Part shown: piece after piece, positions 905-30,314 of the stretch
Position numbering within the stretch: position 1 is the first letter of the stretch
Layout: every line of letters starts with the position of its first letter
Source of the DNA: Chloroflexota bacterium
GTDB taxonomy: Bacteria > Chloroflexota > UBA6077 > JAJPHF01
Assembly (NCBI GenBank): GCA_019686175.1
Contig: JADGHJ010000003.1
Location: forward strand, 1-32,000
Direction of reading: 5' to 3'
DNA length: 32,000 nt
Position numbers and translations under genes: made by a program
The notes under the pieces: generated by a model
What the model was told of the DNA's origin: nothing
What the model saw: the letters and a program-made list of their open reading frames with translations, nothing else
Database searches by the model: none

Positions 905-2315
905 GCGGTCTGCTTTCGCGCTGCCCGGCTGGGGTGATCTGCACGAACTCCGCGCTCTCGACCAGCTCGGTTAGATTGTGGGCGCCAAGATAGCTCATAC
1001 ACGAGCGCAGCCCGCCGACCAGCTCGAACAGCACGTCGCTCACCTGGCCGCGGTAGGGCACGATCGTCTCCACGCCCTCGGGCACGCGGGCATCGAAGCT
1101 CGCCTCGTCGATGCCCAGCCCCAGCCGCCGGTAGCGGTCGATCGTCGCGCCCTCGGAGGCCATACCGCGATACACCTTGTACCGCTGGCCGTCGCGCAGG
1201 ACCGTCTCGCCGGGGCTCTCGTCGGTGCCGGCGAGCAGGCTCCCTACCATCACCGCCGCAGCGCCGGCCGCGAGCGCCTTGGCCATGTCGCCCGGGGTGC
1301 GGATCCCGCCATCCGCGATGATCGGCACGCGATACGGGCGCGCCGCGCGGACGCAGTTGAGGACCGCGGTCAACTGGGGCACGCCCACCCCTGTCACGAT
1401 GCGCGTGGTGCAGGCGGCGCCGGGGCCCACGCCGACCTTCACCGCGTCGGCGCCGGCCTCGATCAGGTCCACCGTGCCCTGCGCGGTGGCCACATTACCC
1501 GCCACCAGGTCTACGTCGGGGAACCGGCGCTTGATCTCCCGCACGGCGCGCAGCGCCTGCTCGCTGTGGCCGTGGGCGATGTCCACCACGAGCACATCCA
1601 CCCCGGCCGCTACTAGTGCCTCCGCGCGCTCCAGGTAATCACCCACCACTCCGACGGCCGCGCCCACGCGCAGGCGCCCCGCACCATCGCGCGTGGCGCG
1701 CGGGTGCTGGTACACGCGCACCAGGTCGCGCGCCGTGATCAGCCCGCGGAGCCGGCCTTGCTCGTCGACCAACGGCAGCTTCTCGATGCGGTGCTCGTGC
1801 AGCAGGCGCTTGGCTTGCTCGTAGCTCGTCCCGACCGGGGCGGTAATCAGCTGGTCGCCGCGCGTCATGACCTCACGCACCGGCTTGTCGGGTGCGTCCT
1901 CGAACAGCAGGTCGCGCAAGGTGAGAATGCCCACCAGCCGGTGGTCGGGCTCCACCACCAGCACGCTCGTGGCACCAGAGCGGGCCATCAGCGCCCAGGC
2001 GTCACGCAGCGGCCGGTGGGGGCCGAGTGTTTGGACGTCCTGCATGAGATCGTGCTGGGGGCACTTCACGCGGCCGATCTCAGCCACTTGCTGCGGGATC
2101 GACATGAACCGATGGATGACCCCGAGGCCGCCCTCGAGCGCCATCGCCTCGGCCATCCGCCACTCGGTCACGGTGTCCATATTGGCGCTCAGGATCGGGA
2201 TGGCCAGCGCCAGTCGCGGAGTCAAGCGGGTGGAGGTGTCCACATCGCGGCGCGACGCGATGTCGGAGCGTCGGGGCACGAGCAGCACGTCGTCATACGT
2301 GAGGGCAAGCTGCAT
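885..2315 (-). CDS. guaB: Inosine-5'-monophosphate dehydrogenase
   Basis: N-terminus [11 protein letters not shown], tandem CBS region, catalytic loop [11 protein letters not shown], and C-terminal YRGMASEGA. Start trimmed to ATG 2315 ([10 protein letters not shown]). The GTG at 2357 lies at or near the predicted transcription start. Confidence 0.95.
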
Positions 2316-2970: not shown

Positions 2971-3162
2971 GAAACGCCTCCGGCGCCGCAAAGCCGCCTG
3001 GCACTCGCAAAGCGATCACAGCCGCGAGCGGCACGCCGGGGGCGCGGGCGTAACGTTTTGCGCGCCCGCCCGTTGAATAAATAAAGGGAGAGGACGACGC
3101 GCGGGCCGCTCGCTGGAGCCAGGCCGCGGTGGGCAGCGAGCGCGGGGTAAGGCAACGGGACG

Positions 3163-22061: not shown

Positions 22062-24398
22062 TCACTCGAACAGCGAGGGCTGGTGGGCGGCCGGGGCGGC
22101 ACGCGCCTCCTCCTGCGGGTCGGCGAACAGGGTCTTGAGCTGCTCGGGGCCCAGCGCGGCGGCCAACCGCTGCGCGTAGGTCGTGCGCAGCTTCTTCACG
22201 TACGCTTCGGGATCGTAATCGTTGGCGAACAGCTCGGCCGGCTTCTTCTTGCCGCCCACCGCCTGGTAGTAGCGCACCCGCTCGCCCGGCTTCCAGGTGG
22301 TACGTCCTGCCGCCAGCAGCACCTCATACGCCTCCTCGCGCCGCTTGGCCGCCTGATATTGCGCCGGGGTCTTGGTGAGCGGCATGCTCACGCACAGGTC
22401 GTCGACCGGCACCTCGCGGCGGCGCAGGCGGTCGACCAGGCCCAGATAGAGCCGGCGCAGGCCGTCGAGGTCGTCCGCCAGAATGCACTCGATCGCCTGC
22501 TGCAGGAACCGCTCGCCGTACGGCTCGTTGCGGCTGGAGCGGAAGGACGCGCCGACGGTGCGCAGGCGGCCGTCGTAGCCACGCAGCACATAGTTCTTCG
22601 CCGCATGGCTGTACATCCGCTCCCAGCGCCCGTCGTACTCCACCTGGATCCCCGCCGGCAGTTCGGCCGCCACCTCCGCCACAAGCTGCCGCTCCTGCTC
22701 CTCCGTCCAGTCCGCGGGCACGCTGAACAGCACACCATCGGTGTCGGCCTCGATGAGCGTCACCCCGCGCCGCTCCAGCGCCTCGAGCATCTGCTTCAGG
22801 ATCTCGCGGCCGCGGCGCGTGACCTCGGCCGCGGCCTCGAGGTCGCCGAACAGCGCAAAGCTGGTGCCCATCGCGCCGTAGAAGGAGTTGATGAGCACCT
22901 TCATAGCGGCCTGCACCGCCTCGTGGTGGGCGCGCGTGGCGGTGGCCGCCGCTCCGGCCGTGGCGAGCCGGCGCGCCTCCGCCTTGTGGTGCAGCCGGAG
23001 CCGGGTCAACTCGCGCAGCAGCTCGAGGAACACCCCCAGCCGGTCGCTGCGCGGCTGGATGCGGTAGGTGAGCATGATACTCGGGTACAGCGACGCGACG
23101 TCGGCCTTGACGATGTGGCGCAGGACGCCCGTGCGGAACAGCTCGGTGTGCGCGCCCTCATAGGTACCGCCGACGCCCGGCGCGCGCGGCAGAGAGTGGC
23201 CCGCGGTCACGTAGGCGCGCACCAAGAGGGGCTCGATCAGCCCCTGGCCGGTGCCGGCCGTGGCCACGCGCTCGAACGGCCGCGGCACCATCGCCGCCAG
23301 CGCGAACGACGGAGCGAGCAGGAGCTGCGAGAGGCGGTCCACCTCGCGCACGTCGTCGAGCGCGTAGCGGCGCACTCGCGCTGGGTCGCGCTGGTACTCG
23401 GGCCAGATCGCGGCGCCGTCGAGGTACTCGCGCGTCTCCCCTGCGAAGCCGAAATGCCGCGCTGCCTCCTTCAGGCCATGGCTACGGAGGTCGCGCACGA
23501 TCGCCCCGTAGCGGCGCACGGCGTGCAGCGTGTCCACCAGCTCGCGGCCGGCCAGGCACCAGCGCGTGAAGCGTTCGCTCTTCTCCCCGACCTTGAGCGT
23601 GTCCTCATAGCGGGTGAACTCGCTGCCGTCGCGCCCCAGCGGCAGCGGTACCCCGAGCCGTCGGGCCCGCTCGACCAAGAACGGCACGTCGAAGTCGAAC
23701 AGGTTGTGGTTCTCGATGACGTCCGGGTCGTGTTCGCGGACCAACTCCACGAAGCGGTGGAGCAGCGCCGGCTCGTCGCCGAGGTCGGCGATGTCGAGCA
23801 CTTGCTCCCAGCCGTCGCTGCTGCGAACCGCGATCATGAAGATCTGGTCGCGGTAGCGGTTGAGGCCGGTGGTCTCGAGGTCGAATTGCAGGCGGCGCAG
23901 ATGGTGGTAGCCGAGCCCCTTGTAGTAGGTGCGCCCGGTGCCGATCAGGTACTGCTCGACGGCCGAGCGCGCGTACACCACGTCGCGCAGGTCGTAGAGG
24001 CTCCGGGCCTGCTGCCCTGTGCGCGCGTTGTGGGCCTCGACCACCGCCTGCTCGACGGCGGCCAGGCCGTAGCCGAGCACAAGGTAGCGGTAGTGTAGGT
24101 CGCCAGCGAGGGCGACGAGGCCCACCTCGCCGGGACCGAGCGCGCGGGCGGCGTCGAGGTCGCCGGGCGGCAGCGGCACGCAGGGGTGCGCGCCCAGCAG
24201 CGTGGCGTCCGCGAGCAGGAACCAGTTGGGGAAGCGGTCCTCCTCGCAGACCACGCCGCCGTCCACGCGCCGCCAGACTTGTACACGGCCGTCGCGGCCC
24301 GCCGCGACCGAGACAATCCCCGGGGTCGGGTCGCGCCCGTACAGGAGCGCGTGGGCAGCCTGCTCGATGGCCGAGGCGAGGTCGGGAGATGCGTGCAT
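22062..24398 (-). CDS. polB: Family B DNA polymerase (bacterial Pol II-like) with intact 3'-5' exonuclease motifs
   Basis: Exo I FDLETTG, Exo II NHNLFDFDVPFL, and Exo III YALDDV. Pol motif A DVASLYPS, motif B KVLINSFYG, and motif C EADTDGV. The C-terminus ...HQPSLFE resembles a beta-clamp-binding motif. Start is ATG 24398; the track's GTG 24443 lies upstream of a TATACT -10. Confidence 0.9.
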   Translation of the reverse strand: MHASPDLASAIEQAAHALLYGRDPTPGIVSVAAGRDGRVQVWRRVDGGVVCEEDRFPNWFLLADATLLGAHPCVPLPPGDLDAARALGPGEVGLVALAGDLHYRYLVLGYGLAAVEQAVVEAHNARTGQQARSLYDLRDVVYARSAVEQYLIGTGRTYYKGLGYHHLRRLQFDLETTGLNRYRDQIFMIAVRSSDGWEQVLDIADLGDEPALLHRFVELVREHDPDVIENHNLFDFDVPFLVERARRLGVPLPLGRDGSEFTRYEDTLKVGEKSERFTRWCLAGRELVDTLHAVRRYGAIVRDLRSHGLKEAARHFGFAGETREYLDGAAIWPEYQRDPARVRRYALDDVREVDRLSQLLLAPSFALAAMVPRPFERVATAGTGQGLIEPLLVRAYVTAGHSLPRAPGVGGTYEGAHTELFRTGVLRHIVKADVASLYPSIMLTYRIQPRSDRLGVFLELLRELTRLRLHHKAEARRLATAGAAATATRAHHEAVQAAMKVLINSFYGAMGTSFALFGDLEAAAEVTRRGREILKQMLEALERRGVTLIEADTDGVLFSVPADWTEEQERQLVAEVAAELPAGIQVEYDGRWERMYSHAAKNYVLRGYDGRLRTVGASFRSSRNEPYGERFLQQAIECILADDLDGLRRLYLGLVDRLRRREVPVDDLCVSMPLTKTPAQYQAAKRREEAYEVLLAAGRTTWKPGERVRYYQAVGGKKKPAELFANDYDPEAYVKKLRTTYAQRLAAALGPEQLKTLFADPQEEARAAPAAHQPSLFE

Positions 24399-24431
24399 GC
24401 GCTGGTGCTCCGGCGCCGTGGTGGCGACCAG

Positions 24432-24437
24432 AGTATA
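24432..24437 (-). promoter_or_regulatory. Candidate -10 (TATACT on the minus strand) for polB
   Basis: An AT-rich hexamer between the ADH stop (24472) and polB ATG 24398. The -35 is weak. Confidence 0.35.
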
Positions 24438-24471
24438 GCGCACGCGAGCGCGCCCCTCGCTCGTTGAGCGC

Positions 24472-25743: not shown

Positions 25744-26451
25744 TCAGGCCGGTGGGCTGCTCGCCCGGTACGCTGGGTAGTCGCGCTCCGTGATCGTGCC
25801 CGGCTCCAGCGGCGTGCCCAGTAGCTCCAGCGCGTCGCGCAACACCGCACGCTGCACGTCGTCCTGGAACGGGCGGCCCAGCACGTGGCCGATGGCGAAG
25901 CCGGCCGGGTAGAGCGCGCGCGGTGGGCCGGCTTGCGCCGAGGCCTCCGGGCTCACCGTGATCAACACCGTCGGGAGGCCTCGCATCTCGATCTCGCGTT
26001 GGATCGCAACGACCGTGCGATGGCAGATGTGCGGTCAGCCCGCGGTGAGCACCACTGCGTCCGCCTTCGAGCGTTCCAACCGGTCGGCGATGGCCGGGGC
26101 CGTCTCCTCGTACACCTCACGCAGGCGCGGGGACGTACCCATGTAGCCGACATGATAGTTGCTCACCGCCGCGATAACGCCTGCGTCCGCGAGCTCGCGC
26201 AGGCGCGCCAAAGGAAACACGCAATTGATGTCGCGGTCGGCGTCGGTATGGTCGTAGTGGGGATGGGTAATCATGAGGTCGGCCAGCGGGGTATCGCCAG
26301 GAATGACGCGAAACTCCTTCTCGCCCTCCGGCCGGAACGGCGGCTGATCCCGCAGGTGGACCCCTGCTGTGGTGACAAGGGCCACGGTGGTCTCACTCAG
26401 CGGCCGGCGGTTTGGCGTGTAGGGAATGCAGCGACGGGAGATCTGCGGCAT
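25744..26451 (-). CDS. Short glycine/sarcosine/betaine/D-proline reductase component-B (GrdB/PrdB) family protein, predicted selenoprotein (in-frame TGA at 26037..26035)
   Basis: Track ORFs 26035..26451 and 25744..25986 are in the same frame, with no other stop between them. Joined, they read ...RSKADAVVLTAG-U-PHICHRTVVAIQREIEMRGLPTVLITV... (235 aa). GGAGAGGA SD precedes ATG 26451. A hairpin lies downstream of the TGA. Confidence 0.8.
26003..26021 (-). promoter_or_regulatory. Candidate bacterial SECIS hairpin for the GrdB-family gene
   Basis: On the mRNA: UGA, 13 nt, then AUCGCA-CGGUCGU-UGCGAU (perfect 6-bp stem, 7-nt loop containing GGUC). Confidence 0.5.
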
Positions 26452-26495: not shown

Positions 26496-26526
26496 GGGCG
26501 GGGGTAGCCTCAGAGCACCCCCGCCC
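26496..26526 (-). other. Intercistronic GC hairpin between the two selenoprotein genes
   Basis: Perfect 9-bp stem GGGCGGGGG / CCCCCGCCC with a 13-nt loop, starting 5 nt after the peroxiredoxin TAG. No U-tract follows. Confidence 0.4.
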
Positions 26527-26531
26527 GTTCT

Positions 26532-27038
26532 CTAATCGAGTTTGCGGAGCACGTCGAACACAAGCTCGGGATCGGGCTGCTCGGTGATCTCGTGCACGTC
26601 GATGTAAGCGATCTTGCCCTGCCGGTCGATCACGAACATCGCCCGCTCAGCGATGCCCTTGTCCTCGATCAAGACCCCGTAACGGCGAGCCACCTCGCCA
26701 TGGGGCCAGAAGTCACACAGCAGGGGATAGGTGATGCCACCGAGGGAATCGGCCCACGCTTTGTTGCTGAAGGTGCTGTCGACGCTGATGCCCACGACCT
26801 GGGCATTCATGCCCTCGAAGCGCGCCTTGAGCGCCTCGTATTCGGGCATCTGCACGCTTCAGACAGGCGTCCAGGCTACGGGGTAGAACGCGAGCACCAC
26901 GTGCTTCTGGCCACGCAGCGCGCTGAGCCGGAACGTGTCGCCGAGATGGGTCGGCAGCTCGAAGTCCGGCGCCTCGTCCCCGACCTGGAGAGTAGGCGTC
27001 CGGTTGGCCTTCGAGTGCGTGCCCTTCTGGACCGCCAT
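26532..27038 (-). CDS. Peroxiredoxin (AhpC/TSA-Bcp-like), predicted selenoprotein with Sec at the peroxidatic position (in-frame TGA at 26861..26859)
   Basis: Manual translation from ATG 27038 (GGAGGAG 10 nt upstream) gives [88 protein letters not shown]...FVIDRQGKI... (168 aa). The track shows only the 107 aa after the TGA. Confidence 0.85.
26816..26838 (-). promoter_or_regulatory. Candidate bacterial SECIS hairpin for the peroxiredoxin gene
   Basis: On the mRNA: UGA, 20 nt, then CGAGGCGC-UCAAGGC-GCGCUUCG (8-bp stem including one G-U pair, 7-nt loop with GG). Confidence 0.5.
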
Positions 27039-29795: not shown

Positions 29796-30314
29796 CTACA
29801 CAGTCGCCTCGGTGCGGAAGGTCCGGTCCCCGCGCTGGACGACCAAGGTGACTCGGTGGCCTGACTCGAGTGTGTTGAGCGCGGCCTCGAGGTCGGCAGC
29901 CGAGCGGATGGGCCGGATGTTGAACTCGGTGATGATGTCGCCAGCTTGCAAACCCATGCGTTCGCCGACGCTGCCCGGACGCACGCGGCCCACGTAGGCA
30001 CCGAACACGGGCACCTGGCCCTGCCGCATGGCGATCTTGCTCGCGTCCGCCACGCTCAGGCCGAGCGAGGGACGCTGCGCCCGAATCGCCGCCACCAGTC
30101 GCTCCAGCCCCGCGCGGTCGAAGCCGATCACCACCTGACCGTTGTAGGTAATGACGGGCACGGCTCGCTGACCCGTGCGGGCCACGACCTCCGCGGCCGC
30201 CGCGGGATCGGCCGCCACATCGCGCTCCTGGAACTGGACGCCTCGCTCGGCGAGGTACGCCTTCGCCAGCTGACAGTAGGGGCAGGTAGGCGTCGTGTAG
30301 ATGGTGACCTGCAT
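29796..30314 (-). CDS. Glutaredoxin (NrdH/Grx-like, CPYC)-PDZ domain fusion protein
   Basis: N-terminus MQVTIYTTPTCPYCQLAKAYLAERGVQFQERDV...VPVITYNGQVVIGF (Grx fold). C-terminus GAYVGRVRPGSVGERMGLQAGDIITEFN...VTLVVQRGDR (PDZ). No signal peptide is evident. Confidence 0.8.
   Translation of the reverse strand: MQVTIYTTPTCPYCQLAKAYLAERGVQFQERDVAADPAAAAEVVARTGQRAVPVITYNGQVVIGFDRAGLERLVAAIRAQRPSLGLSVADASKIAMRQGQVPVFGAYVGRVRPGSVGERMGLQAGDIITEFNIRPIRSAADLEAALNTLESGHRVTLVVQRGDRTFRTEATV

Follow-up and report, generated by a model that had tools for sequence, protein, structure and literature searches.

A probable selenocysteine peroxiredoxin of the AhpE type and its conserved PrdB-like neighbour in a Chloroflexota genome

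Peroxiredoxins with selenocysteine (Sec, U) in a TxxU motif form a recognised family of bacterial selenoproteins, which is assigned to Peroxiredoxin PF00578 (PMC13188914). They are encoded by 43 genes in the Sargasso Sea and by 253 genes in the Global Ocean Sampling (GOS) data (PMC1088965, PMC2398784), and 91 proteins are known from 78 sequenced organisms (PMC5029168). The putative member described here is encoded on the minus strand, at 26532..27038, of the first 32,000 nucleotides (nt) of contig JADGHJ010000003.1 from a Chloroflexota bacterium (assembly GCA_019686175.1), and this whole stretch is called the window in the following. The original prediction, made from the letters of the window, had proposed a Sec-containing peroxiredoxin in this place and had regarded such enzymes as rare and mainly clostridial. 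The latter opinion is outdated, as the TxxU peroxiredoxins are among the most abundant selenoprotein families of metagenomes (PMC1088965, PMC2398784, PMC5029168).

With the TxxU family the protein from the window shares the AhpC/TSA domain and the PxxxTxxU motif, with the predicted Sec at the peroxidatic position, and Cys homologues are widespread. In contrast to the family as a whole, the clade of the window is AhpE-like, stems from metagenome-assembled genomes (MAGs) of Chloroflexota and Acidobacteriota and from mostly soil metagenomes, and is paired with a PrdB-like gene. The AhpE protein from Mycobacterium tuberculosis (MtAhpE, Rv2238c; PDB 1XXU, 1XVW, 4X0X) likewise has the PxxxTxxC motif, the sequence DFWPHG, the catalytic Arg and no conserved resolving Cys. 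The window protein differs from it by the putative Sec in place of Cys45, by an N-terminal extension of 17 residues, by its origin from another phylum and by a candidate partner of the PrdB-like kind. For a Sec-peroxiredoxin with UGA at the peroxidatic Cys, the precedent established by experiment is PrxU of Eubacterium (Peptoclostridium) acidaminophilum. However, it belongs to the longer Prx1/AhpC type, which is described by the 233-position profile NF040737, and is not an orthologue of the protein from the window.

The gene and its signals are as follows.

26532..27038, minus strand: peroxiredoxin gene of 168 codons including one UGA (putative Sec60), AhpE-like 1-Sec type, recognised by its frame, by Pfam and by the match to MtAhpE
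26859..26861, minus strand: in-frame UGA that provides the peroxidatic residue of P53-x3-T57-x2-U60 and, from a comparison of orthologue codons, is taken as a selenocysteine codon
27049..27055, minus strand: Shine-Dalgarno-like sequence GGAGGAG, 10 nt upstream of the ATG at 27038..27036

Translation of 27038..26532 gives a single frame in which the TGA at 26861..26859 is the only internal stop and TAG at 26534..26532 the terminal one. The frame thus runs through one TGA up to the ATG with its GGAGGAG sequence, as had been predicted. The list of open reading frames contains only the part at 26532..26855 (minus strand, 107 amino acids (aa), GTG start), and the public gene calls divide the window's peroxiredoxin into pieces of 59 aa and 105 aa. 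Headless or unnamed versions make up 23 of the 120 best-matching protein clusters. The protein search revealed many headless clusters of 104-105 aa which start with the Met four codons 3' of the UGA, as well as full-length Cys forms, one of which (P0001, with TPVC) is 85% identical to the protein from the window. Because the public gene calls fragment the peroxiredoxin, its catalytic residue is lost from the protein databases. The N-terminus MAVxKGT... is also present in P0001 and in the relatives L002 and L013. For one locus from Pyrinomonadaceae (L106, 2425..2889, GCA_036399835.1) the NCBI gene table gives a product of 154 residues across the in-frame TGA, and some pipelines thus appear to treat relatives as selenoproteins. 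In the window UGA is used as an ordinary stop codon by 12 of the 26 genes, and only the peroxiredoxin gene and the adjacent PrdB-like gene contain it internally. A reassigned genetic code is thereby excluded.

For the identification of the protein the read-through product was searched with Cys in place of the TGA. It matches the Pfam family AhpC-TSA (PF00578) with an E-value of 1.6e-39 and 135.1 bits (gathering score 26), and residues 19-146 are aligned with positions 1-124 of the 124 profile positions. The read-through restores a complete peroxiredoxin, including the N-terminus as originally proposed, with the profile matched end to end across the TGA. The best solved relative is MtAhpE (E 2e-28 over residues 15-165), and the top seven PDB matches are all mycobacterial AhpE proteins. 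In the alignment U60 corresponds to Cys45, T57 to Thr42 and R132 to Arg116 of MtAhpE, and the active-site motif reads P53-VAW-T57-PV-U60 (PxxxTxxC/U). The TGA is hence located exactly on the peroxidatic Cys, which agrees with the original prediction. From the two conserved residues named there, the Thr is indeed the equivalent of AhpE Thr42, whereas the catalytic Arg is not the one of FVIDRQG but R132 in IAERAMF, which is invariant in 23 relatives.

The sole other Cys of the protein, C107, is replaced by Ser or Ala in the orthologues, so that no resolving Cys is conserved and the enzyme would be of the 1-Cys type, here 1-Sec. Judged by its sequence the protein belongs to the AhpE-type 1-Cys subfamily, with AhpE as closest characterised peroxiredoxin. 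The curated models for selenoprotein peroxiredoxins are not reached: the PrxU model NF040737 gives 77.5 bits (cut-off 270) and the Prx-SUH thiol peroxidase model NF045827 gives 51.4 bits (cut-off 298). The earlier comparison to the PrxU type had consequently to be replaced by one to AhpE. Of 88 Sec forms, 73 have Trp directly in front of the Thr in PxxxTxxU, as the window does with W56. Phe or Tyr stands there in three of four loci with Cys and in the Cys proteins P0001, P0002 and P0004, but other Cys proteins (e.g. P0009, P0028) have Trp. This contrast is based on a small Cys sample and may reflect lineage rather than function.

Conservation of the UGA was studied in DNA of 12 genome loci, of which 11 yielded the peroxidatic codon, and of the 80 metagenome relatives with the best matches. 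At this codon TGA is present in 88 related loci, which belong to Chloroflexota, to Acidobacteriota and to metagenomes that are mostly from soil, and TGC or TGT is found in four (TGC in L001 and L006, TGT in L009, and TGC or TGT also in L030). Among the genome loci eight of 11 have TGA, which belong to Chloroflexota and Acidobacteriota MAGs and to one unclassified uncultured bacterium. The metagenome relatives have it in 79 of 80 cases, a number that describes the clade and not peroxiredoxins at large, since the alignment used to start the scan consisted mainly of the clade of the window. A UGA in frame that is kept in orthologues and coincides with the redox-active Cys of Cys homologues is the pattern by which bacterial selenoproteins are recognised.

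Purifying selection acts on the gene on either side of the UGA. In comparisons of the window with eight relatives, the ratio of nonsynonymous to synonymous substitution rates (dN/dS) is 0.09-0.51 for the 59 codons 5' of the UGA and 0.10-0.33 for the codons 3' of it, at dS values of 0.4-1.7. The low values indicate that the 59 upstream codons are translated in frame in all compared lineages; a lack of conservation or of a common frame in this part, which the original prediction had named as an argument against itself, was thus not observed. One Sec form, L090, has around 1626..1660 an extra in-frame TAG nine codons 3' of the UGA (PV*SAQIPSY*EQK), which is due either to a genuine pseudogene or to a read error.

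An RNA structure is found a short distance after the UGA.

26809..26849, minus strand: SECIS-like (selenocysteine insertion sequence) stem-loop, lower helix AUGCCC/GGGCAU formed by 26849..26844 with 26814..26809
26838..26831 with 26823..26816, minus strand: upper helix of this stem-loop, 8 bp
26830..26824, minus strand: apical loop UCAAGGC, which begins 28 nt 3' of the UGA

The 8-bp stem at 26838..26816, noticed already in the original prediction together with its GG-containing loop and its distance of 20 nt from the UGA, is present and forms the upper helix of a 41-nt stem-loop with -20.4 kcal/mol (z -3.3 in comparison to dinucleotide shuffles, of which one in 200 was equally good). According to a single-stem-loop dynamic programme the best single stem-loop after the UGA in the window has -24.5 kcal/mol. 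In a family-wide test 48-nt segments along the gene were folded for 80 distinct orthologues and compared to versions with synonymous codons permuted within each gene. The segment +12..+59 after the UGA has a mean minimum free energy (MFE) of -17.6 kcal/mol versus -12.2 kcal/mol for the permuted versions; the mean z is -2.2, and z is below -1 in 86% of the genes. For all other segments of the gene the absolute mean z is 1.0 or less.

Bacterial SECIS elements (bSECIS) are described by four rules, namely (i) an apical loop of 3-9 nt on an upper stem of 4-16 bp, (ii) a G in the first two loop positions, (iii) a distance of 16-37 nt between UGA and loop and (iv) an MFE of -7.5 kcal/mol or lower; a subset of genuine elements violates this rule model (PMC13188914). 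Counted with the single-stem-loop programme, 86% of the orthologues have a stem-loop obeying all four rules, compared to 66% of the permuted controls and 50% at other gene positions. A stricter scanner, which demands the -7.5 kcal/mol from the contiguous upper stem alone, is too strict and finds 6% in real and control sequences alike. The element of the window is in agreement with rules i, iii and iv (loop of 7 nt, stem of 8 bp, spacing of 28 nt, -20.4 kcal/mol). When its architecture is placed on the codon alignment of 68 orthologues, 64% of the cells are paired, compared to 32-54% after sliding, the covariation score is 0.153 versus 0.129 +/- 0.008 for shuffles, and for the upper helix alone the paired share of the cells is 71%. 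Such fixed-column counts lend weak support to the stem-loop.

At the same place four Cys-form relatives fold more weakly, with -16.5, -12.5, -7.3 and -4.2 kcal/mol, in comparison to a Sec-form mean of -18.3 kcal/mol. One of the Cys forms, the 85%-identical TGC orthologue at 3001..3501 of L001 (Chloroflexota MAG SMAG_U9860), has kept the 8-bp upper helix but not the lower one, and no PrdB-like gene is located within 3 kb of it. The helix may be the relic of a former SECIS after a Sec-to-Cys conversion.

The gene directly 3' of the peroxiredoxin gene also contains an in-frame UGA.

25744..26451, minus strand: PrdB-like gene of 235 codons with an in-frame UGA at 26037..26035 and the motif G-U-P-H-I-C-H-R, recognised by its frame, TIGR04483 and Pfam GRDB
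26003..26021, minus strand: hairpin of the PrdB-like gene with the form of a canonical bacterial SECIS, 19 nt past the UGA, stem AUCGCA/UGCGAU, loop CGGUCGU

The UGA lies in the context '...VVLTAG-U-PHICHRTVVAIQREIE...'. In the gene table of the source contig an open reading frame of 138 aa at this place is labelled GRDB, and at NCBI it is a 'hypothetical protein IRZ14_00525'. The read-through product matches TIGR04483 with an E-value of 2.5e-54 and 184.3 bits over profile positions 20-226 of 238. Like the selenoprotein B subunits PrdB and GrdB (TIGR04483, TIGR01918, PF07355) it covers nearly the full profile and has Sec or Cys followed by a Cys one helical turn later. Unlike these, it stays below the equivalog cut-off for D-proline reductase PrdB (184.3 versus 300 bits), it adjoins a peroxiredoxin, and no PrdA-like gene is found among the annotated genes of the window or in the loci contexts examined. 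A solved structural relative was not found. In an AlphaFold2 model of a Cys homologue (predicted local distance difference test 92.9) the Sec-equivalent Cys is placed at a helix N-cap after a strand and the second Cys one turn later, an arrangement typical of redox-active pairs.

The hairpin at 26021..26003 is a textbook bacterial SECIS. GGU in the loop is present in all 18 distinct Sec-form sequences of the PrdB-like gene, including that of the window, and in none of the 14 Cys forms, which have GAU or other sequences instead. One stem pair is U-A in the clade of the window and C-G in other clades. In the window the hairpin alone is not thermodynamically exceptional. The PrdB-like gene is a candidate for a second selenoprotein gene, and with its UGA and its canonical SECIS it lends indirect support to Sec decoding in this organism. 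Sec decoding has been documented in Chloroflexota (PMC13326102).

Taken together, we consider it as probable, with a value of about 0.88, that the gene encodes a Sec-containing peroxiredoxin in which the UGA at 26861..26859 specifies the peroxidatic residue. Several observations weigh against this. The window, a further 9 kb or so of its contig and the flanks of 56 related loci contain neither selA, selB or selD nor a gene for tRNA-Sec, and ARAGORN detected no tRNA-Sec in the window or in these loci. The apical loop UCAAGGC has its GG at positions 5-6 and no G at positions 1-2, as rule ii demands, and no fully rule-compliant stem-loop was found in the window after the UGA. Nothing relevant near the gene was found in Rfam at gathering and permissive thresholds. 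RNAalifold finds no consensus structure in a gap-free codon alignment of the 68 orthologues with its fixed columns, since the register of the helices changes from clade to clade. Covariation counted over fixed columns is no more than modest, with 57% and 64% of the cells paired and scores of 0.089 and 0.153 for two candidate architectures. When the stretch of 66-76 nt behind the UGA of the window is folded, the MFE structure is a competing one which pairs the UGA itself; this fold is not common to the relatives and was therefore not adopted. Finally, the presence of selenium in the peroxiredoxin, the dependence on SelB and the identity of the reductant are inferred. Directly observed were the frame, the family, where the UGA lies and how it is conserved, selection on the codons before and after it, the RNA structure nearby and the conservation of the gene pair.

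The lack of Sec machinery genes in the regions searched and the violated G rule would also fit a UGA that is read through without Sec, by a near-cognate tRNA for Trp or Cys or by a lineage-specific suppressor, which would result in low-level expression or in a Cys-containing enzyme. Against this stands that UGA serves as ordinary stop for 12 of 26 genes, that the interchange of Sec and Cys at a redox site in two adjacent genes is the classical signature of selenoproteins, and that the hairpin of the neighbouring gene has the GGU loop typical of SelB-binding elements, which is lost in the Cys forms. We regard this explanation as improbable, even if it is the best of the alternatives. Slightly less credible is that the UGA is a true stop, which would give a 59-aa N-terminal peptide, a separately started C-terminal protein (from GTG 26855 or ATG 26849) or both, possibly re-associating to a split enzyme. 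A start-type codon four codons past the UGA, the Met of VQM, is indeed present in 55 of 81 distinct orthologue sequences. However, 18 of the 81 have no in-frame start-type codon before codon 11, or within the 30 codons that were checked, the Met being replaced by Ile, and a separate C-terminal initiation is hence not a conserved option. In addition the catalytic residue would be on neither piece, the Cys relatives are single polypeptides with the Cys exactly at the UGA position, and the excess of RNA structure is what is predicted for a recoding signal.

That an ordinary Cys-peroxiredoxin was inactivated by a nonsense mutation, of which only remnants are left, is very unlikely. The gene split by the public callers and the additional TAG in the relative L090 are compatible with such a pseudogene, but 88 loci from several phyla have the TGA in identical position, selection is purifying on both halves with dN/dS below 1 despite dS values of up to 1.7, and start codon, Shine-Dalgarno sequence and N-terminus are conserved. 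The argument of the original prediction that a pseudogene would not keep the frame, the ribosome binding site and the catalytic position was thereby strengthened. A sequencing or assembly error from TGC or TGT to TGA, for which a single base change would suffice and nothing specific speaks, is practically dismissed by the same allele with identical 59-aa and 105-aa halves in four independent assemblies (contigs from the ENA, Logan, NCBI and JGI datasets) and by the recurrence of the TGA in dozens of diverged orthologues. In summary, the conserved TGA, the low dN/dS and the missing conservation of an early start codon make pseudogene, sequencing error and split gene very unlikely.

For a Sec-containing peroxiredoxin the following course can be proposed from the established bacterial mechanism and from the peroxiredoxin family. 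Translation would begin at the ATG at 27038 and end at the TAG at 26532, and at the UGA the stem-loop 26849..26809 in the mRNA would recruit SelB with Sec-tRNA(Sec). The selenolate of U60, activated by T57 and R132, would attack the peroxide and thereby become a selenenic acid. Recycling needs a reductant from outside, because no resolving Cys is conserved within the peroxiredoxin. The oxidised form would be reduced by the product of the next gene, the PrdB-like protein with its U/CxxxC motif, and in other lineages a glutaredoxin would take its place.

The gene order is in line with such a role of the neighbour. Among 77 loci with enough flank, 41 have a PrdB-like homologue 3' of the Sec-peroxiredoxin gene on the same strand, with TGA in 17 and Cys in 14 of them. 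The gene directly 3' encodes a PrdB-like protein in 40 loci and a glutaredoxin in 14; neither is found within the flank in 22 loci, and both together in none. Fusions of peroxiredoxin and glutaredoxin occur in the same family (P0009, P0014). In a reciprocal sample of seven PrdB-like proteins, which were chosen only for their long contigs, an AhpE-like peroxiredoxin gene is adjacent in four cases (L098, L099, L103, L106) and 1.8 kb away in L097, and within 3 kb none is found in L104 and L105. Ktedonobacteria and other aerobic soil lineages are among the organisms in which both genes are paired. AhpE of M. tuberculosis is reportedly recycled by the glutaredoxin-like mycoredoxin-1, and this fits to the glutaredoxin neighbours and to the fusions of the peroxiredoxin family described here. 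The alternation of the two genes, the fusions, the reciprocal contexts, the geometry of the Cys residues and the precedent of AhpE and mycoredoxin-1 together suggest that the PrdB-like protein replaces glutaredoxin as reductant of the peroxiredoxin, and gene order points to it as the most likely candidate. That the two proteins form a dedicated peroxide-reducing couple of two selenoproteins, with the PrdB-like protein as resolving partner and reductant in the role that glutaredoxin or mycoredoxin plays in other lineages, is also proposed from gene order but has to be seen as tentative and somewhat doubtful. We found no paper in a literature search that links PrdB-like proteins with peroxiredoxins. 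The published numbers of peroxiredoxin and 'PrdB' selenoproteins are 43 versus 42 in the Sargasso Sea and 253 versus 235 in the GOS data (PMC1088965, PMC2398784). This nearly equal abundance may fit the pair, although a coincidence is possible.

Two further features of the surroundings were noted.

26496..26526, minus strand: G+C-rich hairpin between the stop codon of the peroxiredoxin gene and the start codon of the PrdB-like gene, GGGCGGGGGUG...CUACCCCCGCCC, -27.7 kcal/mol, z -4.5
29796..30314, minus strand: gene of 172 aa for a fusion of glutaredoxin and PDZ (Pfam Glutaredoxin and PDZ), about 2.8 kb upstream of the peroxiredoxin gene and listed for context only

The hairpin lies in the 80-nt gap between the two genes, and none of 200 shuffles was equally good. 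It is not followed by a U-run and fails the terminator pattern; it may act as a partial terminator or as an RNA-stability element. The gene for the glutaredoxin-PDZ fusion adjoins a staphylococcal-nuclease homologue and an S41 peptidase gene. The window has a G+C content of 70% and encodes housekeeping proteins like IMPDH, a sigma-70 factor, DnaX-YbaB-RecR, S1, ClpC, RadA, IspD/F and CysS. By exact sequence match its RecR is MBX5489594.1 of a Chloroflexota MAG with the locus tags IRZ14_. Amid these genes a family-B DNA polymerase of 793 aa with an RNase H-like exonuclease domain is encoded at 22062..24443 on the minus strand, and it is found at the same place on related contigs.

Sec-peroxiredoxins as such are already known, and the fresher point of this locus is the conserved pair with a second UGA gene, whose product is a possible redox partner. 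The clade, which is missed by the curated selenoprotein models PrxU and Prx-SUH, extends the Sec-peroxiredoxins to high-GC MAGs of Chloroflexota and Acidobacteriota and to metagenomes mainly of soil, in which the Sec form predominates. The pairing with PrdB-like genes bears on the question how AhpE-type peroxiredoxins with one Cys or one Sec are recycled outside the actinobacteria, as well as on the role of the orphan 'PrdB' selenoproteins of aerobes. If the two-selenoprotein couple is true, the 'PrdB' selenoproteins that abound in aerobic bacteria from soil and sea would not be proline reductases.

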